Below, piece after piece: positions 15,554 through 34,259 of a stretch of 64,000 nucleotides of DNA. The first letter of the stretch is position 1. The number at the start of each line of letters is the position of its first letter. The translations under genes and the position numbers were made by a program. Under the pieces are notes generated by a model. The model saw only the letters and a program-made list of their open reading frames with translations. It made no database searches and was not told where the DNA came from. Location of the stretch: positions 71,308-135,307 of the forward strand of contig JABMPT010000005.1 in NCBI GenBank assembly GCA_013202845.1, written 5' to 3'. The stretch comes from Candidatus Woesearchaeota archaeon. Its GTDB lineage: Archaea; Nanobdellota; Nanobdellia; Woesearchaeales; GCA-2686295.

Positions 15554-15595
15554 TGTGAAATAAGAGAGAATAGAACCATTTTTAAAATTAACTGT

Positions 15596-16633: not shown

Positions 16634-16676
16634 CTAGCCGACCGAAAACATGACATATTTAAATAACTATCGTGTA

Positions 16677-19838: not shown

Positions 19839-19927
19839 AAGGTGGACTACTAGTACCAGATTTATTAATCTTTCTGAAATCGAAAATTTCAGAAGCCCAT
19901 AAACTTGTTTAAGTATATTTCTGAAAT

Positions 19928-20482
19928 CTATCCACAATTCATAACTCTTTCCTCTGTGATAATTATGTCTACAGGAATATCATGTGTTTGATTCGGTAAT
20001 TCCTTGACAACTTGCTTTTCAAAAGCTAAACCTATCTTCAAAGCATTACTTATTTTTCTCAAGAATTTGTCATAATATCCTTTACCATAACCTAGTCTAT
20101 GGCCTTTTTGGTCAAATACTATGCCAGGAACTATAACAATATCAAGAGGAATTGTTTCTTCTATTGGATTAATAGGTTCTAATATCTCAAATATTCCTTT
20201 TTTTAGTTTAGCAAACCCTAGAAACTTGGTGTATTTTATCTCATCTCCAACTACATAAGGAATAAAAACTTCTTTAGTTTCACTAATTTCTGTTATTAAA
20301 GTATGTGTTTGTACTTCATTATCGATAGAGATATAACAATGAACTTTTCTTGAAGCTGTGAATTCTTCTAAGTCAAAAAGTATTTTTTTTATTTTATTAC
20401 TCTTATTAGCCACAACTTCCTTACTCAGGCTATTTCTTTTTACTAATATTTCTTGTCTAAGAGTTTGCTTAAATTGATTCAT
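19928..20482 (-). CDS. 5-formyltetrahydrofolate cyclo-ligase (MTHFS).
   Basis: C-terminal GYGKGYYDKFL matches the 5-FCL signature; length is 184 aa. Confidence 0.65.
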   Translation of the reverse strand: MNQFKQTLRQEILVKRNSLSKEVVANKSNKIKKILFDLEEFTASRKVHCYISIDNEVQTHTLITEISETKEVFIPYVVGDEIKYTKFLGFAKLKKGIFEILEPINPIEETIPLDIVIVPGIVFDQKGHRLGYGKGYYDKFLRKISNALKIGLAFEKQVVKELPNQTHDIPVDIIITEERVMNCG

Positions 20483-21140
20483 CGTTTTTTAGAAAAACTT
20501 TTTCTCCATTAACTTCTTTATACGGTAAATCTCTGGCTCCAAGAAAATATGTTGCTCTGATTCTTAGTTTCACTTCCTCTTCATTCATTTCATCTGTGAT
20601 TTTGCAAAGTTTTTGAAGTTCTTTTCTAGTATAAGGTTTTCTTTCCCAAGTCTCATTAGACTCTGGTAAACGCTTGTTTTCAATAATACACGCAAATATT
20701 TCATGAAATAGTTTTACAAGGTAATCTATTGTTCTTTCTTTTAATTTGAGAACTGTGTCATCTTCATACATCGGAAATCTAAGTACTTTTACAATTTTTC
20801 CTGAGTCAACTCTTGATATCATATAATGGCAGGTTACACCATATTCTTTATCTTTGTTATATATTGCAAAGTTATAGCATCCTATGCCAGGATATTTTGG
20901 AGGTGCAGGATGAAAGTTAATTGCTAACTTAGTTTTATTCAACAACCATTCAGGCACTATCCAAGGACAAAGAAAAGATATTACATAATCACCAAACCAA
21001 TCTTTTAGCTCTTCTGGAAATTTATCTCCAAATTCTCCTTCAAAAATTTTCAAATCTACTTCTTTTGGAATTCTTTCTTTTACAAACGTTTGTATTTCTT
21101 TACAAGCATCAGATGTTTTTGTCAGTAAAAGAATTTTCAT
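20469..21140 (-). CDS. Formyltransferase-fold enzyme (Formyl_trans_N); predicted N10-formyl-THF-dependent sugar N-formyltransferase.
   Basis: DYVISFLCPWIVPEWLLNKTKLAINFHPAPPKYPGIGCYNFAIYN...SRVDSGKIV aligns to the Fmt/PurN core (Asn-x-His ... Asp catalytic residues, SLLP-like loop). Confidence 0.55.
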   Translation of the reverse strand: MKILLLTKTSDACKEIQTFVKERIPKEVDLKIFEGEFGDKFPEELKDWFGDYVISFLCPWIVPEWLLNKTKLAINFHPAPPKYPGIGCYNFAIYNKDKEYGVTCHYMISRVDSGKIVKVLRFPMYEDDTVLKLKERTIDYLVKLFHEIFACIIENKRLPESNETWERKPYTRKELQKLCKITDEMNEEEVKLRIRATYFLGARDLPYKEVNGEKVFLKNDESI

Positions 21141-21141
21141 T

Positions 21142-22275
21142 TTAGTAGGTTATTTGTTTTTGCAATAATTTCTTGTCTATTTTTATAGATTTCAAAACTT
21201 TGATTATTCTAGGAGCTGTTTTTCCATCACCATAAGGATTCTTACATAATTTTAGTTTTTCTTTGAAACTTAAAGACATTGATTTCTTTATTGCTTTTTC
21301 TATTGAATCTTCGTTGTAACCTACATTTATAACATTAAAAGTTCTGTCTCTTCTGTTTTGTCTTGTTCCAATGTTTACAACAGGCAACTTAAAAGATGCG
21401 GCTTCTATTATTCCGCTACTGGAATTTCCAACAAGAACTTCTATGTTATTCAGTAAACTTAAATATTCATCATGAGGAATATTTTTGAATATCTTAAATT
21501 TAGGATTTTTTGAAAACTCTTTAATCTTATCTATTATTTTTCTTCCTCCTGCATCTGCATTTGGGTACACAATGATTGTTTGATAACCTAGTTCTTCTAC
21601 AGCTTTTAGAGTTTTAGAAACTTGGTTATCAGGATTATCTTCTCCTGTTACTGGATGTTGAATAACCATTAATGTTTTTTCATCGTTTAAACTTAACTTT
21701 TTGAATAATTTTTTTCTTGGAATGGTTTTATTTTTAACAATACAATCCAAGCCGGGAGCCCCAACAACATAAATTCTCCATTTATCCTCACCCATTTTTC
21801 TTATTCTTTCAGCACTATTTTCTGTGCATGGCAAATGAATATGAGACAATTTAGTGATTGAGTGACGTGAGATTTCATCAACAGTAGATGTTACTTCCCC
21901 TCCATGTAAGTGAGCTACTGGAATAGTTAAATAAGCGCCCACTATTGCAGCGCCTAACATTTCAGCTCTATCACCAAGAACTACTATTATGTCTGGTTTT
22001 GATTTCTTCACATAGATTGCTAACTTATTAATGAATTCACTCAAAAAAATAACCATTGAATTTTTATCATCTTTTTTGTAAATAGAATTTATTTTCTTAA
22101 TTTTAAATCCCTCTTGTTCTATGTCTCTATAAGTATTTCCAAAATCCTTCATTAAGTGCATGCCTGTAGCGACTAAATCTAATTTCAGATCTTTGTCTTT
22201 TTTTATTAAAAATAGCACCTCTTTCATTAAACCATAGTCAGCTCTTGTTCCAGAAACACATATTATTTTTCTCAT
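21142..22275 (-). CDS. UDP-sugar 2-epimerase (hydrolysing), NeuC/LegG-like.
   Basis: MRKIICVSGTRADYGLMKEVL...HLHGGE; non-hydrolysing/hydrolysing 2-epimerase family. Confidence 0.8.
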   Translation of the reverse strand: MRKIICVSGTRADYGLMKEVLFLIKKDKDLKLDLVATGMHLMKDFGNTYRDIEQEGFKIKKINSIYKKDDKNSMVIFLSEFINKLAIYVKKSKPDIIVVLGDRAEMLGAAIVGAYLTIPVAHLHGGEVTSTVDEISRHSITKLSHIHLPCTENSAERIRKMGEDKWRIYVVGAPGLDCIVKNKTIPRKKLFKKLSLNDEKTLMVIQHPVTGEDNPDNQVSKTLKAVEELGYQTIIVYPNADAGGRKIIDKIKEFSKNPKFKIFKNIPHDEYLSLLNNIEVLVGNSSSGIIEAASFKLPVVNIGTRQNRRDRTFNVINVGYNEDSIEKAIKKSMSLSFKEKLKLCKNPYGDGKTAPRIIKVLKSIKIDKKLLQKQITY

Positions 22276-24032
22276 TTTAAGTCATTCCAAAGAATTAATT
22301 TATCTTTTGCAATATTTTTTTTTGCGATTTTCCCTAGAACTTTGGAAATATCTTGAGGAGGTATACCTGTGCCAGGCCTCTTGATTATTATCATATCAGA
22401 AGTTATAACCGTCCCTTTTGCAATGTCTTGTTTTGCTACTAGACTTTTCTTTGCAACAACTTCTATTCTCTTCTCTGAATCAGTTGATTTTTTCTCTTCT
22501 GAACCTCTAATTATTTCTACTAAACGTATTTGCTTCACCATTTCTTTTAACTCTTTAGGTTCAAGTGATGCTTTGTGATCTGGCCCTTCCATATTTCTAT
22601 CGAGAGTAAAATGTTTCTCAATAACAACCGCACCCATAGATGCAGCAACTAAAGGAACAACTATTCCTTCTGTATGATCAGAATAACCAACTAAGCATTC
22701 TAATTCTTTTCTCATTGTTTCCATTGCTCTAAGATTTACTTCTTCATAAGGTGTTGGATAATTAGTTGTGCAATGCAATATCACTATATTATTATTTCCT
22801 TGAGATTTCATAGATTCATAAGCTTCTTTCACATCTTCCATAGTTGACATCCCTGTAGCTAGTATTATTGGCTTGTTCTTCTTTGCCATTTTAACAAGAT
22901 AAGGAATATTATTTACTTCTCCTGATCCTGCTTTGAAAGCTACAACTCCCAATTCATCTAAGAAATCAATTGAATCTTCATCAAAAGGAGTTGACAAAAA
23001 TATTAGTCCTTTTTTCTCTGCATATTCTTTCAATATTTGGTGATACTCTTCCTTTAATTCAAGTCTTTTCAACATTTCAAACTGTGTTTCTTGTTTTCCG
23101 ATATTTTTTTTCTGATATTCTGCTTGATCAGCATCTTTTGTCACTAGTTTTTCAGCTTTGAAAGTCTGGAATTTAACAGCATCAACTCCTGCATCTGCAG
23201 CAACATCAATAAGTTTCTTGGCAATTTCTAAATCACCATTGTGATTCACTCCTGCTTCAGCTATCATAAAACAAGGACTGTTATTGTCAATTGTTTTATT
23301 TCCAATCTTAATTTCTGGAAGATCTTCTTTTTCAATTAAAGATTCTGCAATCTTAAAATCAATTTCCTCATCAATATCTAAAGATTCATGAGAAGACATA
23401 ACTAAAGGAGTAACTCTATCTCCCCAAACATAATTCTCTGAGTTCATGATTAGTTCTTTATTAAAAATATATACTGAACCATTTATCAAATAAATAGCAT
23501 TATCTTTTTGGTCTTGTTTTCTTATTTTTGAAAAATCATTTTTTGAAATGAATTTGAGTTCATCTTTTTCTATTCTTAAGAACCAATTCGATGGCATATC
23601 TGCTTTCTTAACAGAAATCATCATATCTGAATTTGATTTCATAAATTTATTTATAGCTTTAGAAAGTAAATTTGAAGATCTTAAAGGAGATGTTGGTTGT
23701 AGCATAATTACAGAATCAAAGTCATAGTTTTCTTCTTCCAAAACAAATACTAGGTGCTTGAGAACATCCAAAGAAGAGGATTTATCTGTTGCTAACTCTT
23801 TTGATCTCATTATTACGTCCGCACCATATCTTCGAGAAATTCCTGCAATCTCTTTAGAATCCGTTGAAACTATAGTTCTACTTATTTCTTTACAACCAAG
23901 AGATTGTTCAATAGAATAAGCAATCAAAGGTTTTCCATTCAAGTATTTAATATTCTTTTTGGGGACTCTCTTACTTCCTCCTCTGGCCGGTATTATTGCT
24001 ATTACTTTTTTCATTAACTCACTTCCATACAC
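22272..24032 (-). CDS. Fusion of an acylneuraminate-type cytidylyltransferase (NeuA/LegF/PseF-like) with a nonulosonic-acid synthase (NeuB/LegI/PseI-like).
   Basis: N-terminal VIAIIPARGGSKRVPKKNIKYLNGKPLI (CMP-NeuAc synthetase motif). Middle PCFMIAEAGVNHNGDLEIAKKLIDVAADAGVDAVKFQTF (NeuB TIM barrel). C-terminal SAF domain. Length is 586 aa. Confidence 0.8.
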   Translation of the reverse strand: MYGSELMKKVIAIIPARGGSKRVPKKNIKYLNGKPLIAYSIEQSLGCKEISRTIVSTDSKEIAGISRRYGADVIMRSKELATDKSSSLDVLKHLVFVLEEENYDFDSVIMLQPTSPLRSSNLLSKAINKFMKSNSDMMISVKKADMPSNWFLRIEKDELKFISKNDFSKIRKQDQKDNAIYLINGSVYIFNKELIMNSENYVWGDRVTPLVMSSHESLDIDEEIDFKIAESLIEKEDLPEIKIGNKTIDNNSPCFMIAEAGVNHNGDLEIAKKLIDVAADAGVDAVKFQTFKAEKLVTKDADQAEYQKKNIGKQETQFEMLKRLELKEEYHQILKEYAEKKGLIFLSTPFDEDSIDFLDELGVVAFKAGSGEVNNIPYLVKMAKKNKPIILATGMSTMEDVKEAYESMKSQGNNNIVILHCTTNYPTPYEEVNLRAMETMRKELECLVGYSDHTEGIVVPLVAASMGAVVIEKHFTLDRNMEGPDHKASLEPKELKEMVKQIRLVEIIRGSEEKKSTDSEKRIEVVAKKSLVAKQDIAKGTVITSDMIIIKRPGTGIPPQDISKVLGKIAKKNIAKDKLILWNDLK

Positions 24033-25275
24033 GATGTCTTAAAACCCATTTATCATTTGCTTTTTTCCACAAATGAGGTGATCTGAATTTATCGGCAACT
24101 TCAAAAAACTCTTTTTCACTCATATCAATATACTCCAAAAACTCTTTGAAGTATCTTTTTGGGAATTCTTCATCAAATTTCTTAACTAAAGCAACAGCTT
24201 CTTCTCTTGTAATCTTTTCATTACGAACTTCTTGAGAAGCATCATAAGTTGCTCTACCAATTCCAAATTTAATTAATGTAGTCCAATAATGGAATGGATC
24301 AGTTTTGTCATCTATGCTGTTGTATTTTGAATATGTACCCTCAGTTCGTTGATCATTCGCCTGAAAATCCACTTTATCAACAGCAAAATAATAAGCTTCT
24401 TGAGGATCCCATTTAATATAATATCCCATATAATGAACCTGAATACCAGCTTTTTCTATCTCATTAGGATCGAGTGGCAAATACGGGACAAGATCAACTC
24501 TTTCAAGTCCATGTTTTTCAATTAAATCACTAACTTTTACTCCGAAAATAAACATATCATTAAAATTTTCACCACAGTGATATTTTTGAGAGCGTAAAGC
24601 AGTTACGGTATCTTGAATAGGATTTCCATACTCGGCTTCATTTTCACCATAAAAAACTAATGGGACACCATATTTCAATGCGAAACATGCACCAATGTTT
24701 TTTTGACCCAATATAAAAGGTTGAAAAGGATGCAATAAATTAGTATAAGCCAATTTTGTTAATAATCTATGTACTTTACCATTTGGTGTAAATAAAATAT
24801 TATCAAATCCGCCTTTATGTACCCAATTAATAAAATAATTCCATCCATAGGGAGTGTACATATGAGGAGCCCAAGTGACAGTAAGAGGATGCATATCGTA
24901 TTTATACTTTAAAATCCAAGAAGCCATAATACTATCTTTTCCGCCACTTCCTGATACAATACAATCATATCTTCCATCTGTTCTTCGGTATTTATCACAT
25001 AGTTTTTTTAATTCTTTTTCACGTTTTTTCCAATCAATATTATGATTTTTTTTATCAGTTACTTTACAGGCATCACAAACTCCATCCTCATCAAAATTTA
25101 TAGTTTCTTTTTTAGTTTTAATATTATGTTTAAACTCAACTGCTGAATTAGGCCTCTGATTTGAAATAACACATCTCTTACAAAATTTAACTTCCCTTGG
25201 CAGACCATAGAGAACTGAAACATTATCAGTTTTTTCTTCTTTATATTCCTTTGGGTCAACATTTGATGTTACCAT
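24019..25275 (-). CDS. N-acetyl sugar amidotransferase (WbuX/AglX/PseA family; PP-loop ATPase).
   Basis: SGGKDS PP-loop, N-terminal Cys-rich region (CKRC...CDAC), length 418 aa. It sits adjacent to a HisH/HisF paralog. Confidence 0.75.
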   Translation of the reverse strand: MVTSNVDPKEYKEEKTDNVSVLYGLPREVKFCKRCVISNQRPNSAVEFKHNIKTKKETINFDEDGVCDACKVTDKKNHNIDWKKREKELKKLCDKYRRTDGRYDCIVSGSGGKDSIMASWILKYKYDMHPLTVTWAPHMYTPYGWNYFINWVHKGGFDNILFTPNGKVHRLLTKLAYTNLLHPFQPFILGQKNIGACFALKYGVPLVFYGENEAEYGNPIQDTVTALRSQKYHCGENFNDMFIFGVKVSDLIEKHGLERVDLVPYLPLDPNEIEKAGIQVHYMGYYIKWDPQEAYYFAVDKVDFQANDQRTEGTYSKYNSIDDKTDPFHYWTTLIKFGIGRATYDASQEVRNEKITREEAVALVKKFDEEFPKRYFKEFLEYIDMSEKEFFEVADKFRSPHLWKKANDKWVLRHRVWK

Positions 25276-26652
25276 TTAGACTACCCCCAAAAATCTCTTC
25301 AAAATTTTTAGTCCTAAATAATCACATTTTTCAGGATGAAACTGGGTTCCATATACATTGCCTCTCTTTACAACAGAACAAAATGATTGGTTGCCATATT
25401 CTGATTCTGCAAGAATATCTTCATTATCTTTAGGAACACACCTAAATGAGTGAACAAAGTACATTAACGAGTTGTTAGACACACCTTCAAGAATAGTGTT
25501 TTGCCATGATTTGTTTTTAGGAATAACTATTTCACTCCAGCCAACATGAGGCAATCTAATCCTTTTACTTATTTTTTCAGGTTCTAATTTCTTTACAACA
25601 CCTGGTATTACTCCCAATCCTTCATGGACCCCAAATTCTTCTCCTTTCTCAAATAATAACTGCATACCTAAACATATCCCTAATAAAGGCTTTCCTGAGT
25701 TTACATAATCCCTTACAGCTTCAATGAGTCTATTCAACCTAAAGTTGTTCATACCTTCACTGAAAGATCCTACTCCAGGAATAATAAGCATCTCAGAATT
25801 ATTTATTTCATCAGGATTTTTAACAAATCTATATTCATAACCGAGACTTTCTATAGCAGATTTTAAACTATACAAGTTTCCAAGACCATAATCAACAATT
25901 GAAACTGTCTTTTTATCATTCTTATTATTCTTAATATCATCTTTTAAATCTTCTCTAATTCTGATATCATTAACTCCTTGTTCAAGTAAATATTTTTTAA
26001 TTTTTTCAATAGTAGTCTCATCATAATGCAGGACTGAAGCAAAACTCACAGCATCACATTTAGTTTCTTCAATGCATTTCTTAATATCTTCTATACTTCC
26101 AGCACCACCAGAAGCAATAATAGGAACATCAACAGAGTCAGTAATCTGTTTTATTAGTTCCAAGTCATATCCTTTTTTTAAACCATCTTTATCAACAGCA
26201 GTTACCAATAACTCTCCAGCTCCAAGCTCAACAAGTTTTTTTGCCCATTCAACTGCATCCAAACCAGTCTTTTCTCGACCACAATCAATATATACCTCCC
26301 ATTTTCCTAGGCCAGATTTCTTTGCTTCAATAGAACCAACAATACATTGAGTTCCAAACATTTGTGAAGCTTCTTTAATAAAATTAGGATTTCTAGTTGC
26401 GGCGGTATTTATTGCTACTTTGTCAGCTCCCGCTCTTAAAACTTGCCTGATATCCTCAAGGTTTCTTATCCCACCTCCAACAGTCATTGGAACAAACATT
26501 CCAAGCGCAACTGTTTCTTCAATTATATGCAAAAGATTATTTCTTTCATATAAACTTGCTACTATATCAATATACAATATTTCATCAGCTCCTTGCTCAA
26601 AATACTTTTTTGCAAGTTCTGCCGGATCACCAACTACTCTTAATCCTTCCAT
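25276..26652 (-). CDS. Fused HisF-like cyclase and HisH-like glutamine amidotransferase (WbuZ-WbuY / AglZ-AglY paralog). It supplies ammonia for acetamidino formation.
   Basis: N-terminal HisF motifs (VVGDPAELAKKY...DEILYIDI...GGGIR...VAINTAA). C-terminal HisH triad region (GICLGMQLL...H.E). Length is 458 aa. Confidence 0.8.
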   Translation of the reverse strand: MEGLRVVGDPAELAKKYFEQGADEILYIDIVASLYERNNLLHIIEETVALGMFVPMTVGGGIRNLEDIRQVLRAGADKVAINTAATRNPNFIKEASQMFGTQCIVGSIEAKKSGLGKWEVYIDCGREKTGLDAVEWAKKLVELGAGELLVTAVDKDGLKKGYDLELIKQITDSVDVPIIASGGAGSIEDIKKCIEETKCDAVSFASVLHYDETTIEKIKKYLLEQGVNDIRIREDLKDDIKNNKNDKKTVSIVDYGLGNLYSLKSAIESLGYEYRFVKNPDEINNSEMLIIPGVGSFSEGMNNFRLNRLIEAVRDYVNSGKPLLGICLGMQLLFEKGEEFGVHEGLGVIPGVVKKLEPEKISKRIRLPHVGWSEIVIPKNKSWQNTILEGVSNNSLMYFVHSFRCVPKDNEDILAESEYGNQSFCSVVKRGNVYGTQFHPEKCDYLGLKILKRFLGVV

Positions 26653-26737: not shown

Positions 26738-27703
26738 TTATGTAATGTTTAAGTTTTCAACATTATGTCTTTTCATGAAATCAAATAATAATAAGTGAGC
26801 AAGAAAAGTTTCCTCAGCCAAAGGTAACATTGGTTTTTGATTATTCACAATGTCATTAACAATTTTTTCTGTTATTTGACTTGTGTATAGAATTGGAAAC
26901 TGCTTCTTAGCTACTTTTTGATTTTTATCAATAATTACAATTTTTTGCTCCATTTCAAATACTGTTATTAATTCTTTTTCTGTTGATATTTGTATTGAGT
27001 TAGTCGATTCTTTTCCAGATATATTGATTGTGCATGGATATTTGTCATTAACTACAAAAGTCATACTACCTTCCATATCTTGAAATCCTTTTCTTTTTGA
27101 ATCAAATACAGATATGAGTTGAGAATCCAATATTTCATATTTTTTCATGTTTAAGAACCAAGACACTGTTTCTAAATAATGTATTCCATTGCAAGCAAAT
27201 CCTACAGACCTTTCAAAGTTGATATTAAAGGTAAATTTTGATCTGTTCTTTATTTTTGATAACAATTCTTGATATCCTGGATATGTGTGATTAGAAAAAT
27301 TGCAATAAATAGGAACCTTATTAGCTTTACTTAAAGAGAGTATATTTTTTATAACTTTCTCAGTTTGAGATAACGGTTTTTCTGATATTATTGCTTTTGG
27401 TTTTAATGAAATTACTTTAGATAGAATATCAAGTCTTGCATCTGCAGTTGTTGATACTATTATTATTGTATTATTATCAATCTTAGGTAATATGCTAGAT
27501 AAATTGGTTGTCATGTATAGGCCTTTAAAATTTAATTTATTTTCATCAATAAATTTTTTGGTAGAATCTATTGATTTTTGAAACTTGTCATGGCAAAACA
27601 GTTCAAAAGCCATATTCAAATTCGATACTGATTGTAAATGTCTTTTTCCAATACTTCCAGTTCCAATAATCATGATTTTCAACATTTTAGTCATCATATC
27701 CAC
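26738..27703 (-). CDS. Gfo/Idh/MocA-family NAD(P)-dependent oxidoreductase.
   Basis: MLKIMIIGTGSIGKRHL Rossmann motif and an EKPL motif. Confidence 0.6.
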   Translation of the reverse strand: MDMMTKMLKIMIIGTGSIGKRHLQSVSNLNMAFELFCHDKFQKSIDSTKKFIDENKLNFKGLYMTTNLSSILPKIDNNTIIIVSTTADARLDILSKVISLKPKAIISEKPLSQTEKVIKNILSLSKANKVPIYCNFSNHTYPGYQELLSKIKNRSKFTFNINFERSVGFACNGIHYLETVSWFLNMKKYEILDSQLISVFDSKRKGFQDMEGSMTFVVNDKYPCTINISGKESTNSIQISTEKELITVFEMEQKIVIIDKNQKVAKKQFPILYTSQITEKIVNDIVNNQKPMLPLAEETFLAHLLLFDFMKRHNVENLNIT

Positions 27704-28646
27704 ATATTTTATTTATAATTTCAAACATTTTCGTTTGTTCGTTAATATTTGGAAGTTCTTTTAACCCTTTTAAGTTTTCCAATGCAGCCTTTGTCATTTT
27801 TAATATCCCTGGCTTAAAGTTGTCATCATCTGAATCTGATAATGATATTTCAGACCAGTTAAATTGGTTTTTTTCACAAAATTGTAAAGTTTCTAAAGGA
27901 GAAAGCTTATATCTGCCCTTAATTGTAGATATTTCAACATTCCATCTTCCTGCTCCATCCCAAGAAGAAAAATAACTAAAAATACATTTACTTGTTTCTC
28001 CACAGCCACTAAATATGTTTCCAGATGGATGTTTTTCCCAATATCCATCGATTTTTGTAAAAATATTTTTAGGAATTCCTATTAAATAAAAAGCAAGGTC
28101 AATTACATGAATAGAATTTGCTATTCCCCATCTAGCCACAACTTTTTTTGTTTCTTTCTGATTGTCTAGAACATCTTTTTGTCTTTCTGTAAAGTCAAAA
28201 AAACAACCTGTAATATTCTCATTCTGAAGGATAGATTTTAGCTTAATTACTGAGCTATAGAACCTTCTATTAAGAGCATATCTAATAATGACTTTGTCGT
28301 TAATTTGTTTTTTTATTTCTTTCATTTCTTTTAGATCTACAGATCCTGGTTTTTCGACTAGTATATTCTTAAATCCTTTCTTTGCACAGTTTATTGTTAT
28401 ATTTTTTAATGATGGAATTGCAGAAGCTACTATAACTAAATCTATTTTTTCAGGATCAAAGTTTGAAAGAGACTCAATACTATTTCCCATAGATTCAAAG
28501 CCATATTTGTCTGCAGTTTTCCTTGCATTTTCAAGGTTTCTACTAATAACAGTAACTTTTGCACCTAGTTCTTTCAAAACCTTAAGGTATTCCTCCGCCA
28601 TATAACTTGAACCAAACACAATTACATTTTTTATCATTTTTTCCAT
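27687..28646 (-). CDS. Gfo/Idh/MocA-family oxidoreductase (second paralog).
   Basis: NVIVFGSSYMAEEYL...ILVEKP. Confidence 0.55.
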   Translation of the reverse strand: MEKMIKNVIVFGSSYMAEEYLKVLKELGAKVTVISRNLENARKTADKYGFESMGNSIESLSNFDPEKIDLVIVASAIPSLKNITINCAKKGFKNILVEKPGSVDLKEMKEIKKQINDKVIIRYALNRRFYSSVIKLKSILQNENITGCFFDFTERQKDVLDNQKETKKVVARWGIANSIHVIDLAFYLIGIPKNIFTKIDGYWEKHPSGNIFSGCGETSKCIFSYFSSWDGAGRWNVEISTIKGRYKLSPLETLQFCEKNQFNWSEISLSDSDDDNFKPGILKMTKAALENLKGLKELPNINEQTKMFEIINKICGYDD

Positions 28647-28739
28647 TTTTATCTATTTAGTAAATGTTCGTTCTAATTTTTTCCCTCAATTTTATTTATT
28701 AATTCATAAAGATTGTCTTTTGATCTTAAGTTTACTTTT

Positions 28740-29783
28740 TTAACTATTCTCTTTGAATTGCTTTAATAATCCATTTTTAATATTTTTGTGTGCAATATTA
28801 CTATTTTTAATAATACTCAACCTACCACCACATTCATTACATATTCGCATTTTATGTGAATCACCGTTTATATGTAATTTTCGCACTCTCTCAAGAATAG
28901 GACCAAGCCAAATATCCTTTATGGATGTTTCTTTAGCATTACCCAATTTAAATTTACCATAAGTATCACCACAACAAAGTCTATACTCACCATCCCACAT
29001 AATAAAAAGACGTCTCCAAGGCTGATTACACTTAAAATCCTTTGCAATTACAATATCTGTAAACTTAGTATCATCCCTTTCATTCTCTTCTTCTAAAGCA
29101 ATATCGTCTGTATATGGTCCCCAAAATTCAACATATTTTTTTACATGTTCCTCTATGTTCTTAATTGATTTTAATAGAACCATTTGTATACGAATAATTG
29201 GTTTATTTATGTTTAATTCCTTTTTGAGTTTATTAAGTCTAACAATATTTTTAAGCACAGTATTAAAATTACCACCAATACGTATAGATTCGTAGAAATC
29301 CTTTGTATACCCGTCAATCGAACAAATAATTTTATCCATGCCAGCATCAATTAATGCGCGAGCCATTTTTTCATTTAATAGATTCACATTAGTGTTAAAC
29401 ATAACTTCCAAAATACCCTTCACTTTTGCATATTTAACCATATCAGCTATGCGTGGATGCAAAAGAGGTTCGCCACGATACATTAGTTTAATAGAACACA
29501 ATCCATTTTCAGCACCCTCATCTATTAGTTTAGTATATAAATCCCAATCCATATATCCAGGTTTTGGAGGTTTAAACGACTGAAAACACATCTTGCATTT
29601 TAAATTACAAGAACTATTTGCTTCAATATCTAAATGAATAGGAAAGGAACCTACAATGCAATTTTCAGGATTTTCATTCCATTTTCTACGATATTCCAAG
29701 TATTCAGGGGAATAGTCTTGTTTTGATGTTTTAATTTCATTATAAGTCGAAAAATTCCTTTTTTCTTTAATTTCTGCCATCAA
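28740..29783 (-). CDS. Radical SAM enzyme with C-terminal SPASM/twitch Cys cluster.
   Basis: ANSSCNLKCKMCFQ (CX3CX2C). C-terminal CNQPW...CCGD...CNECGG cysteines. Confidence 0.7.
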   Translation of the reverse strand: MMAEIKEKRNFSTYNEIKTSKQDYSPEYLEYRRKWNENPENCIVGSFPIHLDIEANSSCNLKCKMCFQSFKPPKPGYMDWDLYTKLIDEGAENGLCSIKLMYRGEPLLHPRIADMVKYAKVKGILEVMFNTNVNLLNEKMARALIDAGMDKIICSIDGYTKDFYESIRIGGNFNTVLKNIVRLNKLKKELNINKPIIRIQMVLLKSIKNIEEHVKKYVEFWGPYTDDIALEEENERDDTKFTDIVIAKDFKCNQPWRRLFIMWDGEYRLCCGDTYGKFKLGNAKETSIKDIWLGPILERVRKLHINGDSHKMRICNECGGRLSIIKNSNIAHKNIKNGLLKQFKENS

Positions 29784-29897
29784 TTATACCTCAAAGAAAA
29801 TTAATAGTCAATAACTTATAAATGTTTCGAGAAAGAATTGTTTTTATCGACGAGCATTTGTAAAAACTAAGTCTACTTTGAAAATATATAAAATAAA

Positions 29898-30890
29898 TTA
29901 TAGATTTTTATCGCGCTTCTTTTTGGCAACAATTATGACATTTCCACCAAGGCAAGATTTACTTAATGAATCTGCAAAATTTGTTGCAAAAATATCATTT
30001 TTTAGAAATTCTTTTAAAAATAATCCGAGTTTACTGTTATCAACAGAATTTGATTCAATAAGTTTTTTCACAAATGCAACATCAAAAGAACCATTAGGTG
30101 TGATAGTTTCAATAACATCAAAACCATTATTACTAAACCACTTTTTCAAATTATCACAATTAAAGTAATTAACATGACTAGGAGGACACACCTGTGGATG
30201 ATCATTTCCAGCAACAAACTGCTCAAAACTCTTAACATTTGGAGTTGACATAAACAAATAACCATCATCTTTGACTAACTCATTTAATTTAGCAATAACC
30301 TTTTCAATACTTGGAAGATGTTCCAAACTATCCCATAAAGTAACAATATTGTATTTGCCATCATGCACCATAAAATCCTGGTTATACATCGGAACATCTG
30401 GAAACTTATCAGCAAAAGCCTTGCATCCAGAAGCATTCAAATCAACAACAGTAGGTTTAATGTCCGTGTTTTTTAGAGACTCTACAAAAAAACCAAGAGA
30501 ACCACCAATATCAAGAAGCTTTCCATTTTTAATATGATTAAGAATACGACTAACTCTTTCCTCAAAAATTTTCATACGAGTACATTTTGTTTTTAAAAAA
30601 ACCTCATTTTCAACATCCTTTGCTTTTCCATTATAGTACACACTTAATTGTTCATTTGAAGGATAAGGATTAACAAAACCAAAATCGCAATCAGAACACT
30701 TTGAAATATTGAACTTATTTTTGTTACAATAGTCAAACAACTGTGAAGAACCACACAATGGGCACTTACTCAATTTACTATTTTTATTAGGAATCTGCAA
30801 GATATTTTCAATATCTTCTTTATCAAGATCAACTATTTTTTTTGTAAGCTCTTCTGGATGAATATCTTCGATATCACTAATGTTTATCAT
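29898..30890 (-). CDS. Class I SAM-dependent methyltransferase with N-terminal Zn-ribbon.
   Basis: CPLCGSSQ...CSDCDFGFVNP, followed by LLDIGGSLGFF motif I. Confidence 0.65.
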   Translation of the reverse strand: MINISDIEDIHPEELTKKIVDLDKEDIENILQIPNKNSKLSKCPLCGSSQLFDYCNKNKFNISKCSDCDFGFVNPYPSNEQLSVYYNGKAKDVENEVFLKTKCTRMKIFEERVSRILNHIKNGKLLDIGGSLGFFVESLKNTDIKPTVVDLNASGCKAFADKFPDVPMYNQDFMVHDGKYNIVTLWDSLEHLPSIEKVIAKLNELVKDDGYLFMSTPNVKSFEQFVAGNDHPQVCPPSHVNYFNCDNLKKWFSNNGFDVIETITPNGSFDVAFVKKLIESNSVDNSKLGLFLKEFLKNDIFATNFADSLSKSCLGGNVIIVAKKKRDKNL

Positions 30891-30984
30891 TTTGATTCAG
30901 AGTTTTATTTTACAATAAATTGATTATAACTGTTAAAGCAAAAATATCAAATTTATATATGTTTTTATTTTATACTCTTAACAA

Positions 30985-32595
30985 TCATATTTTGTTCTTA
31001 ATCGCATCAAATATTCTTTGAGAGACTTTATCATCTAGGGAATATAAGTTTTCACGTACAAATTCTTTCAAAAGTTTAACATTATCTTTTCTAGGAAGCT
31101 TATTCTCAACAAACTGGTTTAAAACATCTTTCAGTTTAGATAATTCTTTTATTTTCACACAAAAAACATCATCAGACTCCTTGTAATCATCAATAAAATA
31201 TCTTGAATTTATATCAATGAAATCTAAAAACACAACCGGTTTATTTAACAAAAAAGACTCAATATCCACTGTAGAGCCTAAACTAAGAACCAAATCAGAG
31301 CCGGTTATTAAAGAATACAAATCAGACTTAGAGCGAGATGAATCATGAATAATATTATTCATTGATAAAGCACCAATCACCTTCTCATAATCCTTTATAT
31401 ACTTCTCACGAGGGTGCGACTTCCAGATAAATTCCAAGTCTCCAAAACTTTTGAAAATCTTAAAGAGGTTAGTAATAATTGCAAAATATTCTGCATGCCC
31501 AATAAAATTTGATTCAACAAACGGAGCTGTTATGAACAAAACTTTTTTCACATATTTCCTGTTGTTTGTCTTTGAATAATTCATGAATTTAACAATCTTA
31601 GATAAAAACAAAGCACCTGTAACCTTTATAATATCTTTATCAACACCTAAAGAGATTAATTTATTCTTAAATAATTTTCCTGGAACAAAATACAAGAATT
31701 TATCTGGAGCAAGAGGATTTATTAAAGCAAGACCATATCCATGAAAGGTTCCGCCTAAATAAATATTTTTCTCTTCAGCAGCTGCAGCAGCACACCTTGA
31801 GAATATATCTCCCACAGCTACAGAATAAAGAAATAAAAAATCAATTTTTTCTTTTGATAATATTTCACAATACAATTTGTAATAAAAAATAACAAAGAAA
31901 ATATTTTCTCTTGAAAGATTAAAATTTAACAAAGGCCTCAAAGAGTTAAATATAGCTTCTGCTCTTGAATCTTCAAATTCGACTTTTTTCAAGAAAGTTT
32001 TCTTTTGAGCAGATAATTTTTTTGATAAGTTCCAAGATTCTAATACCAACTTAAAACTTGCATAGGAATATACAATATTTGGGTATTTTATTAATGAGAA
32101 CAAAGAATTTTTTGAAAAAGGTTCAACAACAGAAAGATAGCTCTCAAAACCTTTTGTGCAGTTAACCAATTTTCTCAAATCTTCAGCTCTATCAAGTTCA
32201 AATCCTGACTTCCCTTTTAATAAAGAATTAGTGTGAGATAAAAACATTATTTTCTTCGAGTTTTTTTTATGATTCACAGATTTATTATAAAAAATCTTTA
32301 CTATAAGCCATTTGGATAACTCACTAAATAATAGCAGTTTTTTGTAAAATATAAGTAAAAAAAAAGCTTTTAAATGATATAAGAGTAATGATTTTTTATT
32401 ATTCAATATATTAGTCACATTATTAAAGTTAAGCATTTTAAATGGAACATGCTCTGAAAGCAAAGACATTCTTAAGAACCACCACAAAGAATGATTATCT
32501 ACAAATAAACTTTCTTGAATAGTCTTTCCACTAAATTTAGTTGTTGAAAACTTTTCTAAAAAAGTTATTAAATCATCTTTTTTTATTTTTTGCAT
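30985..32595 (-). CDS. GT-B-like transferase with an HP motif (TagB/TagF CDP-alcohol phosphotransferase-like or sialyltransferase-like); candidate CMP-nonulosonate or phospho-alcohol transferase.
   Basis: C-terminal half ...IWKSHPREKY...SDLYSLITGSDLVLSLGSTVDIESFLLNKPVVFLDF resembles the Glyphos_transf K-x-H-P plus D..ITDYSS..E core and the HP motif of GT52/GT38 sialyltransferases. Confidence 0.45.
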   Translation of the reverse strand: MQKIKKDDLITFLEKFSTTKFSGKTIQESLFVDNHSLWWFLRMSLLSEHVPFKMLNFNNVTNILNNKKSLLLYHLKAFFLLIFYKKLLLFSELSKWLIVKIFYNKSVNHKKNSKKIMFLSHTNSLLKGKSGFELDRAEDLRKLVNCTKGFESYLSVVEPFSKNSLFSLIKYPNIVYSYASFKLVLESWNLSKKLSAQKKTFLKKVEFEDSRAEAIFNSLRPLLNFNLSRENIFFVIFYYKLYCEILSKEKIDFLFLYSVAVGDIFSRCAAAAAEEKNIYLGGTFHGYGLALINPLAPDKFLYFVPGKLFKNKLISLGVDKDIIKVTGALFLSKIVKFMNYSKTNNRKYVKKVLFITAPFVESNFIGHAEYFAIITNLFKIFKSFGDLEFIWKSHPREKYIKDYEKVIGALSMNNIIHDSSRSKSDLYSLITGSDLVLSLGSTVDIESFLLNKPVVFLDFIDINSRYFIDDYKESDDVFCVKIKELSKLKDVLNQFVENKLPRKDNVKLLKEFVRENLYSLDDKVSQRIFDAIKNKI

Positions 32596-32708: not shown

Positions 32709-34259
32709 ATGAAAATCTATATTGTACAGATTGATTATTCTGGATATAATCCAATTGAATTAGTTCTTCCACTTGCGCCATTAATGGTTGGTACGCCTCT
32801 AAAACAAAACGGATTTGAAATTGAAATAGTTCATATTAGTGAAAAAGAGATTAATAAATATGTTAATAAAATAAGTAAAGAAAATCCTTTATTTGTTGGT
32901 TTTTCAGTTATGACTGGAATACAAACGCTACATTCTGCAATTATGTCTAAAGAAATAAAAAAAGTAAGAAAAGATATCACTATTGTATGGGGTGGAGTGC
33001 ATCCTTCAATTTTACCTGATAGTACAATCAAAGCCAATTATGTTGATATAATAGTCAATGGTGAAGGAGAAGAAACAGTTGTTGAACTTGCCAAGCATTT
33101 AAAAGAAAAAAAAGATTTAGAAGAAGTAAAAGGACTTATTTATAAAAAAGGAAGAACAGTTGTAAAAACTCCTAAGAGACCATTCATCATAAATCTTGAT
33201 GATTACACAATAGATTATGAATTGATTGATGTTAATCGATATGCATATACTTCTGGAAAAGCAAAAAGAGTAATTGCATATAGAGCAAGTAGGGGTTGTC
33301 CATTTGACTGTAAATTTTGTTACAATCTTTTATTTAATAACAGAAAAGTCCGAAATTTGTCAGTTGAGAGAGTTGTAAAAGATATTAAATATTTAAAAAA
33401 AAAATATAATATGGATGGAGTAGACTTCTATGATGATCTTTTCTTTACTAACAGAAAAAGAGCAATAGAAATTCTTAAAAAAATTAATATGTATAACACT
33501 TCTGATATAAGAATAGATTTGGTTACTGAAGATTTGGCAAAAGATCTTGTTAAATATAAATCTGAGAATTTACTTATAGGAATGGAATCAGGATCTGATA
33601 GAGTTTTAAATTTGATGTCTAAACGTTGTCCTGTTGAAAAAGCAGAAAGAGGAGTAAGAATTCTATCTAAGTACAGACTAAAAGCCATATATTCATTTAT
33701 GATTGGATTACCAACAGAAACACCTGAAGAAATAAATCAAACTTTAGATTTCATGATGAAAATTAGAAAGATCCATCCAGAAGGAACATTTACTTTGGGA
33801 GTCTATGTTCCATATCCTGGAAGCGACTTATATGAAAGGGCAATAGCTAATGGTTTTAAGGTACCAAAAAATCCTGAAGAATGGGGTGATGTTGAAAGAT
33901 GGAAAAATTTTAAATCACCTTGGATTAACAATGAAGAGGTTTATGTTATAAGAGAGTGTTTTAGATTATTTTCTTTAAATTTATGGCTAATTGATAAAAT
34001 TATGGAAACTAGATTAAAATTTAAATTATTTAAATATCCATTTGAAATATATTTTGTCAATTGGATAATAAGACTTAGTTTAAAACAGACAATACTTGCA
34101 AAAATACTAAGATGGGTACATACTAAAATAACTAGAAAAGAAATGCCTAAATATGATAAAGGTGGAATATTTAGAAGAAAAATAGATAGAGATAAAACAG
34201 AATTTAAGAAAAATGATTTTCGGATGAATCTGGGAAAAGCTCTTCAAAAAAAACAATAA
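32709..34259 (+). CDS. Cobalamin-binding radical SAM enzyme (class B radical-SAM, methyltransferase-like).
   Basis: N-terminal B12-binding Rossmann-like domain. RGCPFDCKFC (CX3CX2C). Length is 516 aa. Confidence 0.75.
   Translation: MKIYIVQIDYSGYNPIELVLPLAPLMVGTPLKQNGFEIEIVHISEKEINKYVNKISKENPLFVGFSVMTGIQTLHSAIMSKEIKKVRKDITIVWGGVHPSILPDSTIKANYVDIIVNGEGEETVVELAKHLKEKKDLEEVKGLIYKKGRTVVKTPKRPFIINLDDYTIDYELIDVNRYAYTSGKAKRVIAYRASRGCPFDCKFCYNLLFNNRKVRNLSVERVVKDIKYLKKKYNMDGVDFYDDLFFTNRKRAIEILKKINMYNTSDIRIDLVTEDLAKDLVKYKSENLLIGMESGSDRVLNLMSKRCPVEKAERGVRILSKYRLKAIYSFMIGLPTETPEEINQTLDFMMKIRKIHPEGTFTLGVYVPYPGSDLYERAIANGFKVPKNPEEWGDVERWKNFKSPWINNEEVYVIRECFRLFSLNLWLIDKIMETRLKFKLFKYPFEIYFVNWIIRLSLKQTILAKILRWVHTKITRKEMPKYDKGGIFRRKIDRDKTEFKKNDFRMNLGKALQKKQ

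Follow-up and report, generated by a model that had tools for sequence, protein, structure and literature searches.

Several described systems resemble parts of the nonulosonic acid (NulO) locus analyzed in this work. In archaea, an N-glycan carrying terminal N-formyl-legionaminic acid has been reported, with the leg genes located beside aglB (PMC6137143). In Tannerella forsythia, a methyltransferase gene and a transferase related to the one described below lie alongside the NulO genes, and the BFO_1060 family of this species is a genetically validated family of Pse/Leg transferases (PMC5420450). Phase-variable genes at neighbouring locus tags in C. fetus encode a radical SAM protein of the MoaA/NifB/PqqE/SkfB family, an SDR, a methyltransferase, and a formyltransferase (PMC6321876). 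Oxidase/reductase pairs that epimerize NulOs are also known: in the C8 epimerization by EpaA/EpaB and Aci/Ela of Acinetobacter, the NulO is oxidized and then reduced post-synthetically, and the enzymes are encoded beside a CTP_transf_3 domain or are fused to one (PMC12053666). The Acinetobacter systems use SDR and aldo-keto reductases, whereas the present locus has Gfo/Idh/MocA and radical SAM enzymes, and the likeness is one of logic. Finally, BtrN, the 2-deoxy-scyllo-inosamine dehydrogenase of the butirosin pathway (PDB 4M7T/4M7S), combines a radical SAM core with a C-terminal twitch domain, and its Cys4-ligated auxiliary cluster is regarded as the electron acceptor when the substrate undergoes two-electron oxidation (PMC9012708, PMC6231123). 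Given the T. forsythia and C. fetus gene sets, the statement of an earlier note on this DNA that the block has no counterpart in textbook clusters was too strong.

In the window, i.e. the whole 64,000-nucleotide stretch of Woesearchaeota DNA analyzed here, five co-directional ORFs occupy positions 26738-32595 of the minus strand, exactly where the earlier note had placed them. Homologues of all five encoded proteins were found elsewhere, and therefore these ORFs represent real genes rather than chance reading frames. They head a NulO operon of 16 co-directional genes on the minus strand, which runs from 32595 down to 14555 (18,041 bp) with overlaps or intergenic gaps of at most 114 bp; both the domain content, as judged from Pfam matches, and the 18-kb sugar operon agree with the earlier description. 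The genes following the block encode a WbuZ/WbuY-like HisF-HisH fusion and a WbuX N-acetyl-sugar amidotransferase (24019..26652, minus strand; WbuX 359.7 bits, WbuZ 253.3 bits), predicted from these profile matches to form an acetamidino group. The core NulO pathway (14555..24032, minus strand), assigned by domain and family profiles, includes a CMP-transferase::NeuB::SAF fusion, NeuC, a formyltransferase, MTHFS, SHMT, FolD, a PseC/LegC aminotransferase, a PseB-like dehydratase, and an SDR (NeuB_NnaB 480.9 bits, NeuC 439.1 bits). The downstream genes cover the entire pathway to a CMP-activated 5,7-diamino-NulO, which is predicted to bear an acetamidino group and an N-formyl group, one of each. 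Elsewhere the window encodes STT3/AglB, a Wzx flippase, several glycosyltransferases including GT2, and LicD, and the operon sits inside an N-glycosylation island with AglB and the flippase.

We infer functions for all five block proteins and propose, at what we consider an even chance of being right as a whole, that the block serves for tailoring and transfer at the end of an archaeal NulO pathway for N-glycans, with the following mechanism. A 347-aa BtrN-type enzyme would bind SAM at its C59/C63/C66 cluster, remove hydrogen from a carbinol carbon, either of the NulO itself or of its 6-deoxy-hexosamine precursor, and hand the second electron on to an auxiliary [4Fe-4S] cluster with Cys4 ligation, giving a keto-sugar. 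Two NAD(P)-dependent Gfo/Idh/MocA enzymes would act on the keto intermediate, most simply by a stereo-inverting reduction, a role that in other genomes may be filled by an SDR, an aminotransferase, or a divergent NeuB paralogue. The methyltransferase would add an O- or N-methyl group. A 536-aa GT-B enzyme, in which the K-x-H-P, S-T, and E motifs would hold the CMP moiety and His285 would act as a base, is proposed to place the finished NulO on a lipid-linked glycan, from which AglB would move the glycan to protein. As already suggested in the earlier note, the product may be a further oxidized or methylated NulO.

The 347-aa protein (28740..29783, minus strand; 346 aa from the likely ATG start at 29780) matches the Pfam domains Radical_SAM (69.1 bits) and SPASM (49.7 bits), and its CxxxCxxC motif is formed by C59/C63/C66. 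Since only four C-terminal cysteines are invariant (C252, C270, C315, and C318), with one more conserved at 86%, the protein has a twitch domain with one auxiliary cluster; the earlier assignment to radical SAM proteins with a SPASM match holds, but the SPASM label overstates the number of clusters. The suggested likeness to BtrN was well founded. BtrN is the top PDB match of the single sequence (1.7e-8) and by far the best solved match of the family profile (4.7e-26, versus 1.5e-12 for the next solved protein). The twitch domains of the family and BtrN align over 82 residues without gaps, with C252/C270/C315/C318 corresponding to BtrN C169/C187/C232/C235 at identical spacing (18, 45, and 3). 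The AF2 model (pLDDT 92.1) matches BtrN in Foldseek with a TM-score of 0.72-0.75, normalized to the BtrN chain. Both proteins occur in small-molecule, amino-sugar-like contexts, often with an aminotransferase or reductase encoded nearby. Unlike BtrN, to which its identity is only about 19%, the window family is about 80 residues longer, possesses a conserved N-terminal extension of ~45 aa (EYRRKW-ENP) that is missing from the aligned BtrN chain, and is found in NulO rather than aminoglycoside clusters.

The main competing explanation keeps the radical SAM enzyme in the sugar pathway and assigns it another radical reaction instead of dehydrogenation: epimerization, removal of ammonia or water from an amino-alcohol as by DesII, decarboxylation as by BlsE, or the making of a C-C bond to supply a divergent NeuB paralogue. 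We regard this as possible but less probable than our proposal. Foldseek ranks SuiB, SkfB, MoaA, DesII, and BlsE in the range of BtrN, and DesII, BlsE, MoaA, EpeE, and viperin lie within two to five orders of magnitude of it. A divergent NeuB paralogue, 25-39% identical to standard NeuB, often accompanies the gene, suggesting that the enzyme may create a new aldose substrate. Against these points, the BtrN profile match is 14 orders of magnitude better than that of any of these proteins, and oxidoreductases or aminotransferases able to take a keto product are encoded near the radical SAM gene in many loci. In addition, the BtrN match extends over the entire twitch domain and includes all four ligands of the Cys4 cluster, a pattern associated with two-electron oxidation (PMC9012708). 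Two observations were counted against dehydrogenation. The oxidizable hydroxyls of a 5,7-diamino-3,5,7,9-tetradeoxy NulO are those at C4 and C8 only. BtrN-like twitch domains are no guarantee of dehydrogenase chemistry, twitch/SPASM sequence similarity being a poor predictor of the reaction (PMC6231123).

The first gene of the operon (30985..32595, minus strand) encodes the 536-aa GT-B protein, a member of an unnamed family (184 cluster representatives at E<=1e-30) and a probable CMP-nonulosonate transferase. In the AF2 model (pLDDT 77.5, pTM 0.80) a helical N-terminal extension of ~110 aa precedes two Rossmann-like domains. The earlier note had likened the protein to TagF and sialyltransferases; instead, the closest solved sequence is the 2-epimerase 4neq of M. 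jannaschii (3.4e-14), the best Foldseek matches are GT-B UDP-GlcNAc 2-epimerases (E ~1e-11), and hhalign aligns both domains with NeuC of the window at 98.7% probability, including a common C-terminal DGK..R.. motif. The only Pfam match is to Epimerase_2 and falls below the threshold (25.8 bits, cut-off 30.6). The C-terminal domain (aa 372-534) matches the NCBIfam family BFO_1060 at 53.9 bits, far under the family cut-off of 200; the protein also matches TIGR04396, and in profile searches it reached no curated cut-off for any transferase family.

All motifs quoted in the earlier note are present: KSHPRE at aa 392-397, ITGSD at 430-434, LSLGST at 437-442, and IES at 445-447. In the HP motif of the nucleotide-binding domain (31405..31422, minus strand), which aligns with IHPR of 4neq, the residues K392, H394, P395, and E397 are conserved in at least 90% of 58 family members. 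The same level of conservation was observed for H285 and G286 in the F-H-G-Y-G loop of the N-terminal Rossmann domain (31732..31746, minus strand; family consensus QHG), which aligns with the 2-epimerase active-site loop HVEAG/HGGE; H285 is the candidate catalytic His. The LSLGST...IES segment (31255..31287, minus strand), with near-invariant S441 (and T442) and E446, likely contacts phosphate and ribose. The known Pse/Leg-derivative transferases Tanf_01245 and TFUB4_00887 of T. forsythia share the HP motif and a related C-terminal nucleotide-binding domain, and likewise stand beside NulO biosynthesis genes with a methyltransferase gene in between (PMC5420450). They differ in length (442-445 aa versus 536 aa) and in the unrelated N-terminal two-thirds, and the D/E-D/E-G sialyltransferase motif is not conserved in the alignment of the window family. 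Taken with the distant kinship to BFO_1060, with the weak matches of family members to the polysialyltransferase, TagF, KpsC/S, and GT52 profiles, and with the CTP_transf_3 and NeuB genes that neighbour the family and its distant relatives, the sequence evidence makes the 536-aa protein the best candidate in the operon for CMP-nonulosonate transfer, as the earlier note had put it, and CMP-NulO transferase is its most likely function.

Another explanation, in our estimate rather unlikely, is that the 536-aa protein is an epimerase-derived nucleotide-sugar processor acting in biosynthesis with the radical SAM enzyme, to which it is translationally coupled. It might, for instance, bind or hydrolyze a nucleotide sugar and offer it to the radical reaction, and another glycosyltransferase of the island would then transfer the NulO. 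The epimerase matches given above would fit such a role, as would the NCBI name of one relative (P0002, 2-epimerase) and the position of the gene, which adjoins or overlaps that of the radical SAM enzyme in at least six DPANN loci (adjoining it in L001, L002, L007, L013, L015, and L019). However, the acid/base residues of the 2-epimerases (the GDR Asp, the HVEAG/HGGE Glu, and the following Asp/Glu) are not conserved in the family alignment, the operon already contains a bona fide NeuC, and the family shows weak but repeated matches to CMP/CDP-dependent transferase families and BFO_1060. The 2-epimerases share the GT-B architecture, the HP(R) motif, and the C-terminal motif with the window protein; its extra N-terminal domain and helical insertions (aa 181-248), in which it differs from them, are typical of membrane-facing transferases. 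Several considerations were counted against the transferase assignment: the closest solved relatives are epimerases, not transferases, the protein reaches no curated transferase cut-off, the D/E-D/E-G motif is not conserved, and the tight coupling with the radical SAM gene may reflect a joint biosynthetic role instead of transfer.

It seems improbable that the 536-aa protein is a TagF/TarL-type CDP-alcohol or CMP-phosphonate phosphotransferase that decorates the glycan with glycerol-phosphate, ribitol-phosphate, or a phosphonate, the donors coming from the cytidylyltransferase-like genes at 193-2030. The HP motif and the C-terminal domain recall TagF/TarL, GT38 polysialyltransferases, KpsC/KpsS, and GT52, and about a third of the 58 members show weak profile matches to such families (Pfam Glyphos_transf, i.e. 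TagF, 20; polysialyltransferase 18; KpsC/S 18; GT52 1). A profile extended with more distant relatives (A3) matches TarL 8va1 at 3.6e-11 in the C-terminal domain, two conserved His residues are reminiscent of TagF, and the window encodes a TagD-like cytidylyltransferase and a PEP mutase fusion. The window protein itself, however, shows no member-level match to these families, with none to PF04464 at E<=0.01, similarity in the N-terminal domain was not detected, and the genes associated with the family are CTP_transf_3 and NeuB, not TagD or PEP mutase. The phosphonate genes are 29 kb distant and come with a LicD transferase of their own, and this LicD / PEP-mutase / cytidylyltransferase module (193-2803) better explains the phospho-alcohol or phosphonate transfer that the earlier note had considered for the 536-aa protein.

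The radical SAM enzyme belongs to a large undescribed family found in sugar clusters of archaea and bacteria, in dozens of taxa, with 350 homologues at E<=1e-10 and at least 537 relatives from 600 tested stretches in GTDB species genomes. Among 85 loci holding the family, a CTP_transf_3 gene (CMP-sugar synthetase homologue) lies within 10 kb in 51 and within 3 kb in 45, and a NeuB homologue within 10 kb in 46, which argues for sugar tailoring rather than peptide maturation. The adjacent same-strand gene encodes CTP_transf_3 (18 loci) or the GT-B family (8) upstream and NeuB (14) downstream, and the same arrangement is seen in a cultured Rhizobium. That the enzyme is a SPASM-type RiPP or protein maturase brought into a sugar operon by chance, as the SPASM match and the RiPP maturases SuiB, SkfB, and CteB among the top Foldseek matches might suggest, is highly improbable: the gaps flanking its gene are only 93 and 114 bp and leave no space for a precursor gene, just as the earlier note had seen none, there is a single auxiliary cluster and no N-terminal RiPP recognition element (the EYRRKW-ENP segment is unlike one), and NulO-gene neighbours are conserved across dozens of phyla.

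Both Gfo/Idh/MocA-type oxidoreductases exceed the PF01408 cut-off of 24. The 319-aa protein (27687..28646, minus strand; 44.6 bits) contains EKP at aa 98 and HVID at aa 180, has no canonical GxGxxG in its sequence, and weakly matches inositol and sugar dehydrogenases in PDB; the divergent 321-aa protein (26738..27703, minus strand; 28.5 bits) contains GTGSIG at aa 14, EKP at aa 108, and HYLE at aa 175, and matches inositol 2-dehydrogenase at about 1e-4. The 330-aa class I SAM-dependent methyltransferase (29898..30890, minus strand; Methyltransf_23, 78.7 bits) has the expected N-terminal zinc-ribbon-like motif (C43-x2-C46, C65-x2-C68), and its relatives occur in 11 of the 85 loci. In DPANN the GT-B and radical SAM genes are adjacent; the Gfo/Idh/MocA pair and the methyltransferase are lineage-specific additions rather than conserved partners of these two. 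L007, the most syntenic relative, lacks all three, so that their substrate may be something other than the product of the radical SAM enzyme. The Gfo/Idh/MocA enzymes alone could perform a redox epimerization, which would make the radical step redundant and was counted against our proposal. Divergently from the operon, profile matches identify a B12-binding radical SAM protein (32709..34259, plus strand), relatives of which are present in 16 of the 85 loci.

The five open reading frames (ORFs) called on the minus strand at 26738-32595 encode proteins of 536, 330, 347, 319 and 321 aa, and ORF calling, Pfam searches and motif checks confirmed that they carry the domains and motifs ascribed to them in an earlier note. 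They head a co-directional run of 16 genes (18,041 bp) that ends at 14555, in which neighboring genes overlap or lie no more than 114 bp apart. A hypothetical protein from a Candidatus Woesearchaeota MAG matches the 536-aa protein with 100% identity, and archaeal markers, RqcH_arch and a Nop2-type methylase, are located near the block. Downstream of the block, the same operon encodes a HisF-HisH fusion and WbuX for acetamidino formation, a CMP-transferase::NeuB::SAF fusion of 586 aa (22272-24032, minus strand; NeuB_NnaB, 480.9 bits), NeuC (439.1 bits), a formyltransferase with MTHFS, SHMT and FolD, a PseC/LegC-type aminotransferase, a PseB-like dehydratase, and an SDR. Judged from these annotations, the downstream genes cover every step towards a CMP-activated 5,7-diamino-nonulosonic acid (NulO), which is predicted to bear a single acetamidino and a single N-formyl substituent. 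The genes for FolD, serine hydroxymethyltransferase and 5-formyl-tetrahydrofolate cyclo-ligase, located beside the formyltransferase gene within the operon (17774-21140, minus strand), are an apparent dedicated supply of formyl-tetrahydrofolate for sugar N-formylation, which is unusual for a reduced DPANN genome. At a homologous Nanoarchaeota locus, the MTHFS gene adjoins two formyltransferase genes.

Beyond the operon, the window encodes a 953-aa STT3/AglB oligosaccharyltransferase (4377-7238, minus strand; PF02516, 173.5 bits), a Wzx flippase (37960-39495), and many GT2, GT4 and GT87-like transferases, which together with the NulO route identify it as an archaeal N-glycosylation island. A precedent is provided by an archaeal N-glycan with terminal N-formyl-legionaminic acid, for which the leg genes adjoin aglB (PMC6137143).

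The 347-aa protein belongs to the radical SAM superfamily (PF04055, 69.1 bits against a cut-off of 29.5); its ORF-finder start, a TTG codon, differs from the annotated one. In an alignment of 35 sequences, the CxxxCxxC motif of the SAM cluster (C59, C63 and C66) and four C-terminal cysteines (C252, C270, C315 and C318) are invariant, and C271 is kept in 86%. The auxiliary cysteines follow the pattern C252-X12-G265-X4-C270, then just C315-X2-C318. A SPASM domain is defined by seven cysteines, CX9-15GX4C-gap-CX2CX5CX3C-gap-C, that bind two auxiliary clusters, and a truncated version with a single auxiliary cluster is by definition a twitch domain (PMC6231123). A full SPASM domain was rejected, as the seven-cysteine motif is absent and only its first half and a truncated second half remain. 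The earlier label of a SPASM radical SAM enzyme was thus right as to the superfamily but implies too many clusters: the cysteine pattern is that of a twitch domain with one auxiliary cluster. The Pfam SPASM profile still matches the protein (49.7 bits) because it takes in twitch domains too. No curated NCBIfam model covers the protein, the best one scoring 127.8 bits against a cut-off of 380.

Among solved proteins, the family profile matched BtrN, the 2-deoxy-scyllo-inosamine dehydrogenase of the butirosin pathway, far better than any other (E 4.7e-26, 94.8 bits; next solved protein, 1.5e-12). The twitch domains of the two proteins align over 82 residues free of gaps, placing C252, C270, C315 and C318 on BtrN-chain positions 169, 187, 232 and 235, so spaced that the intervals (18, 45 and 3) are the same in both proteins, and this gap-free alignment of all four cysteines indicates a BtrN-type twitch domain with one auxiliary [4Fe-4S] cluster. 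The resemblance to BtrN-type dehydrogenases that had been pointed out from the sequence is strengthened by both observations. The AF2 model (pLDDT 92.1) resembled the whole SPASM/twitch group in Foldseek searches (SuiB, BtrN, SkfB, MoaA, DesII, BlsE, anSME and viperin), and the highest target-normalised TM-score belonged to BtrN (0.72-0.75); twitch likeness may nevertheless be a poor predictor of radical SAM chemistry. In BtrN, the auxiliary cluster, ligated by four cysteines, is thought to take the second electron in the two-electron oxidation of an alcohol (PMC9012708).

In total, 350 homologues of the radical SAM protein were found at E<=1e-10, all unnamed or generically named, with sources including DPANN archaea, Thermoplasmata, Altiarchaeota, Omnitrophota and Myxococcales. 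A scan using one genome per GTDB species detected relatives in at least 537 of 600 tested stretches, and hundreds of species carry the BtrN-like family, among them DPANN archaea, Campylobacterota, Desulfobacterota, Clostridia and Rhizobium. To characterize the gene neighborhoods, the proteins of the window were used to search the ORFs called at 85 loci, each with a family member at its center; the resulting counts are lower bounds, because many of these loci are truncated contigs. A homologue of the CMP-sugar synthetase CTP_transf_3 is encoded in at least 51 of the 85 loci (within 3 kb in 45), NeuB in at least 46 (two or more copies in 28), and the 536-aa family in at least 25. The adjacent same-strand upstream gene encodes CTP_transf_3 in 18 loci and a member of the 536-aa family in 8, and the adjacent downstream gene encodes NeuB in 14, CTP_transf_3 in 5 and a PseC-like aminotransferase in 5. 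This linkage to NulO genes should be far beyond chance, given that genomes typically hold few such genes.

Where a neuB gene adjoins the radical SAM gene, its product is a divergent paralogue (25-39% identity to the NeuB of the window) that is absent from the window, the NeuB of which groups with the "standard" NeuC-adjacent synthases (49-74% identity). The divergent gene lies directly 3' of the radical SAM gene in 14 of the 85 loci, as recorded for L001 (the Nanoarchaeota locus), L003, L004, L008, L023, L026, L044, L062, L064, L065 and L083. Its product sometimes lacks the SAF domain or is fused to CTP_transf_3, as in L004, where the fusion adjoins the radical SAM gene, and the standard neuB gene is found beside neuC in the same locus. 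The gene order SDR - radical SAM - NeuB recurs on a Rhizobium megaplasmid. Plasmids of Brachyspira hyodysenteriae of about 33-36 kb (H3, H5, H6 and H8-H10) carry two to six distant copies of this type of radical SAM gene per record, with about 27% identity.

A role as a RiPP maturase was ruled out for the radical SAM protein, as the spaces on either side of its gene, 93 and 114 bp, are too short for a precursor-peptide gene and the sugar-gene context is conserved; the same two features argue for a small-molecule enzyme of a sugar pathway. The open-access literature searched yielded no study tying radical SAM enzymes to the biosynthesis of nonulosonic, pseudaminic or legionaminic acid, and no relevant study of Spiro-SPASM. 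In Campylobacter fetus, phase-variable radical SAM genes of the "MoaA/NifB/PqqE/SkfB family" occur among SDR, methyltransferase and formyltransferase genes (PMC6321876), a likeness by description only.

The 536-aa protein (30985-32595, minus strand) carries the motifs KSHPRE (aa 392-397), ITGSD (430-434), LSLGST (437-442) and IES (445-447). Its public annotation, HQ533_02390, begins 106 codons late, and the resulting 430-aa NCBI model is too short, since the N-terminal 106 residues recur, well conserved, in a 526-aa Nanoarchaeota homologue. Word-indexed searches returned only 3 and then 13 relatives, a single-sequence PDB search gave no match, and a metagenome-contig scan with the GT-B alignment recovered only the known Nanoarchaeota contig. 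An exhaustive profile search, in contrast, revealed a large family (184 cluster representatives at E<=1e-30 and 1536 at E<=1e-10), most members of which have 480-560 aa and align end to end. On these homology searches, both the GT-B and the radical SAM proteins belong to sizeable, uncurated families. Near-invariant residues in 58 members of the GT-B family include Y176, S228, H285-G286 (consensus QHG), K392, H394, P395, E397, Y403, S441, E446, D521 and R527. In the AF2 model (pLDDT 77.5, pTM 0.80), a helical region at the N-terminus precedes two Rossmann-like domains. A transmembrane anchor was rejected, the best 19-residue Kyte-Doolittle mean being 1.45 (aa 70-89).

A structure of the TagF or polysialyltransferase type had been expected, but the nearest solved folds proved to be UDP-GlcNAc 2-epimerases. 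The model matches these GT-B epimerases with probability 1.0 in alignments of about 450 columns, they account for all of the best 50 PDB matches in Foldseek (E about 1e-11, target-normalised TM-score about 0.65), the family profile matches the M. jannaschii epimerase (E 3.4e-14), and hhalign pairs residues 134-535 with the NeuC of the window (98.7% probability). Epimerase identity was nevertheless rejected, since the family does not keep the acid/base residues, namely the GDx Asp, the HVEAG / HGGE Glu and the next acidic residue; the epimerase Glu aligns to Q284 or Y287, in a loop that contains the family's own invariant His285. The Pfam Epimerase_2 match is likewise under the threshold (25.8 bits against 30.6).

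Several lines of evidence point instead to a CMP/CDP-dependent transferase. H394 and P395, which correspond to the HP motif of GT38, GT52 and GT80 enzymes, show conservation of at least 90% across the 58 sequences; no conserved column of a D/E-D/E-G motif was found among them. The protein of the window matches neither PF07388 nor PF07922, nor PF04464 (TagF) at E<=0.01. Weak Pfam matches among the 58 relatives comprise Glyphos_transf in 20, confined to the C-terminal domain, the polysialyltransferase profile in 18, Capsule_synth in 18, and GT52 in 1. The C-terminal domain of the 536-aa protein is distantly related to the NCBIfam family BFO_1060 (NF046086), although the match covers only aa 372-534 and its score (53.9 bits against a cut-off of 200) falls short of membership; it also matches TIGR04396 (39.6 bits). 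The family profile widened with more distant relatives matches TarL at 3.6e-11. In Tannerella forsythia, the BFO_1060-family genes Tanf_01245 and TFUB4_00887, the products of which have HP motifs, are genetically required for attaching the terminal pseudaminic/legionaminic acid derivative (PMC5420450). Together with the radical SAM genes of C. fetus, this transferase makes it too strong to say, as was done before, that the block has no counterpart in textbook clusters.

Gene context extends this evidence. The GT-B gene abuts the radical SAM gene at the Nanoarchaeota locus and is close to it in two other loci (L003 and L004), with NulO genes beside, and three distant GT-B relatives, looked up individually, all adjoin CTP_transf_3 and NeuB. 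In six DPANN loci (L001, L002, L007, L013, L015 and L019), the GT-B gene ends 0-65 bp from the radical SAM start, and this spacing indicates a conserved pair of genes, which the methyltransferase gene interrupts in the window. The GT-B protein might accordingly work with the radical enzyme in biosynthesis instead of being the transferase. The BFO_1060-related C-terminal domain and the CTP_transf_3 and NeuB neighbors strengthen the earlier proposal of a transferase, and we regard the 536-aa protein as a candidate CMP-NulO transferase, NulO transfer itself being suggested by gene context. 

The alternative donor proposed before for this protein, a phosphonate or phospho-alcohol, needs correction, because a separate module is located at 193-2803 on the minus strand. 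It encodes a fusion of PEP mutase with a CTP_transf_like cytidylyltransferase (193-1485), another cytidylyltransferase that is TagD-like (1482-2030), and a transferase of the LicD family (2081-2803), and it looks like a self-contained module for glycan decoration with a phosphonate or phospho-alcohol.

The remaining proteins of the block are less conserved in this context. The N-terminal Gfo/Idh/MocA domain PF01408 (cut-off 24) matches the 319-aa and 321-aa proteins with 44.6 and 28.5 bits, respectively; they contain EKP motifs (aa 98 and 108) and H-x-x-D/E motifs (aa 180 and 175), and GxGxxG is found in the 321-aa protein only. The Pfam domain GFO_IDH_MocA_C was detected in neither at E<=0.01, and NCBIfam and PDB alignments to inositol and sugar dehydrogenases cover the N-terminal half only, up to about aa 150-208. 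Recent paralogy of the pair was rejected (BLASTP E 0.11). The 330-aa protein is a class I SAM-dependent methyltransferase (PF13489 Methyltransf_23, 78.7 bits against a cut-off of 27) with CxxC at aa 43 and 65. The 319-aa protein and the methyltransferase have homologues in 5 and 11 of the 85 radical SAM loci, respectively. The most syntenic locus, from Undinarchaeota (B12-rSAM ... GT-B - rSAM - HisFH - WbuX - CTPt - NeuB ... NeuC), lacks the oxidoreductases and the methyltransferase. Given these few loci and this absence, the three genes are lineage-specific additions to a conserved GT-B/radical SAM core.

From these assignments, we infer the following route. The BtrN-like enzyme would oxidise a secondary alcohol of a NulO or of its hexosamine precursor to a ketone, which the Gfo/Idh/MocA enzymes of this genome could reduce with altered stereochemistry or process otherwise, a role that an SDR, an aminotransferase or a divergent NeuB might fill in other genomes. 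The methyltransferase would methylate the product, and the GT-B enzyme would move the CMP-activated sugar to a lipid-linked glycan, which AglB would later pass to protein. The EpaA/EpaB system is likewise an oxidase/reductase pair, epimerising NulO at C8 (PMC12053666), but no such pair is known to include a radical SAM enzyme. The original interpretation, in which the block specifies a further oxidised or methylated nonulosonate and its transfer, is partly supported, and the block possibly represents new, testable sugar enzymology.

Nonulosonic acids cap surface glycans of pathogens and archaea; to our knowledge, few enzymes that diversify or attach them have been described, and we know of no identified archaeal NulO transferase. 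A broader reading, offered tentatively and in our judgment somewhat doubtful, is that the BtrN-like enzymes represent an unrecognised and widespread radical branch of NulO biosynthesis, in which a dehydrogenase yields a keto-NulO or keto-precursor that is reduced, aminated or extended by a NeuB paralogue to give uncatalogued NulOs, and that the coupled GT-B family of 500-550 aa is the missing archaeal transferase. If the family truly acts on NulOs, an oxygen-independent radical oxidation would be added to their biosynthesis, a recurrent unannotated gene of NulO clusters would be explained, and the phase-variable radical SAM genes of C. fetus, likened by description only, would possibly be accounted for. 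Several cultured organisms carry the BtrN-like family, including Halochromatium roseum DSM 18859 (L054), Pseudobacteroides cellulosolvens ATCC 35603 (L066), Marinisporobacter balticus DSM 102940 (L057), Desulfovibrio sp. 7SRBS1 (L058) and Rhizobium sp. WYJ-E13 (L090), which makes the question directly testable, and the GT-B family would offer a new candidate NulO-transferase scaffold for glyco-engineering.

Several further features of the window were recorded. A scan for sigma-70 promoters and terminators found fewer sites than in shuffled sequences, the sigma-70 model being uninformative for an archaeal host. Adjacent ORFs of 470 and 492 aa at 53675-56553 (minus strand), beside two GT2 genes, have no Pfam match at E<=1e-5. 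The RqcH_arch match at 43891-45009 (minus strand) spans only positions 1-376 of the 645 in the model, and this ribosome-rescue protein apparently lacks its C-terminal half, unless that half is encoded at another site. Divergent from the block, a B12-binding radical SAM protein resembling BchE, HpnJ and PhpK is encoded at 32709-34259 on the plus strand, with scores far under all cut-offs; its relatives occur in 16 of the 85 loci of the BtrN-like enzyme. Other B12-related genes of the window encode a class II ribonucleotide reductase (46323-48896) and a cobalamin adenosyltransferase (45762-46316).
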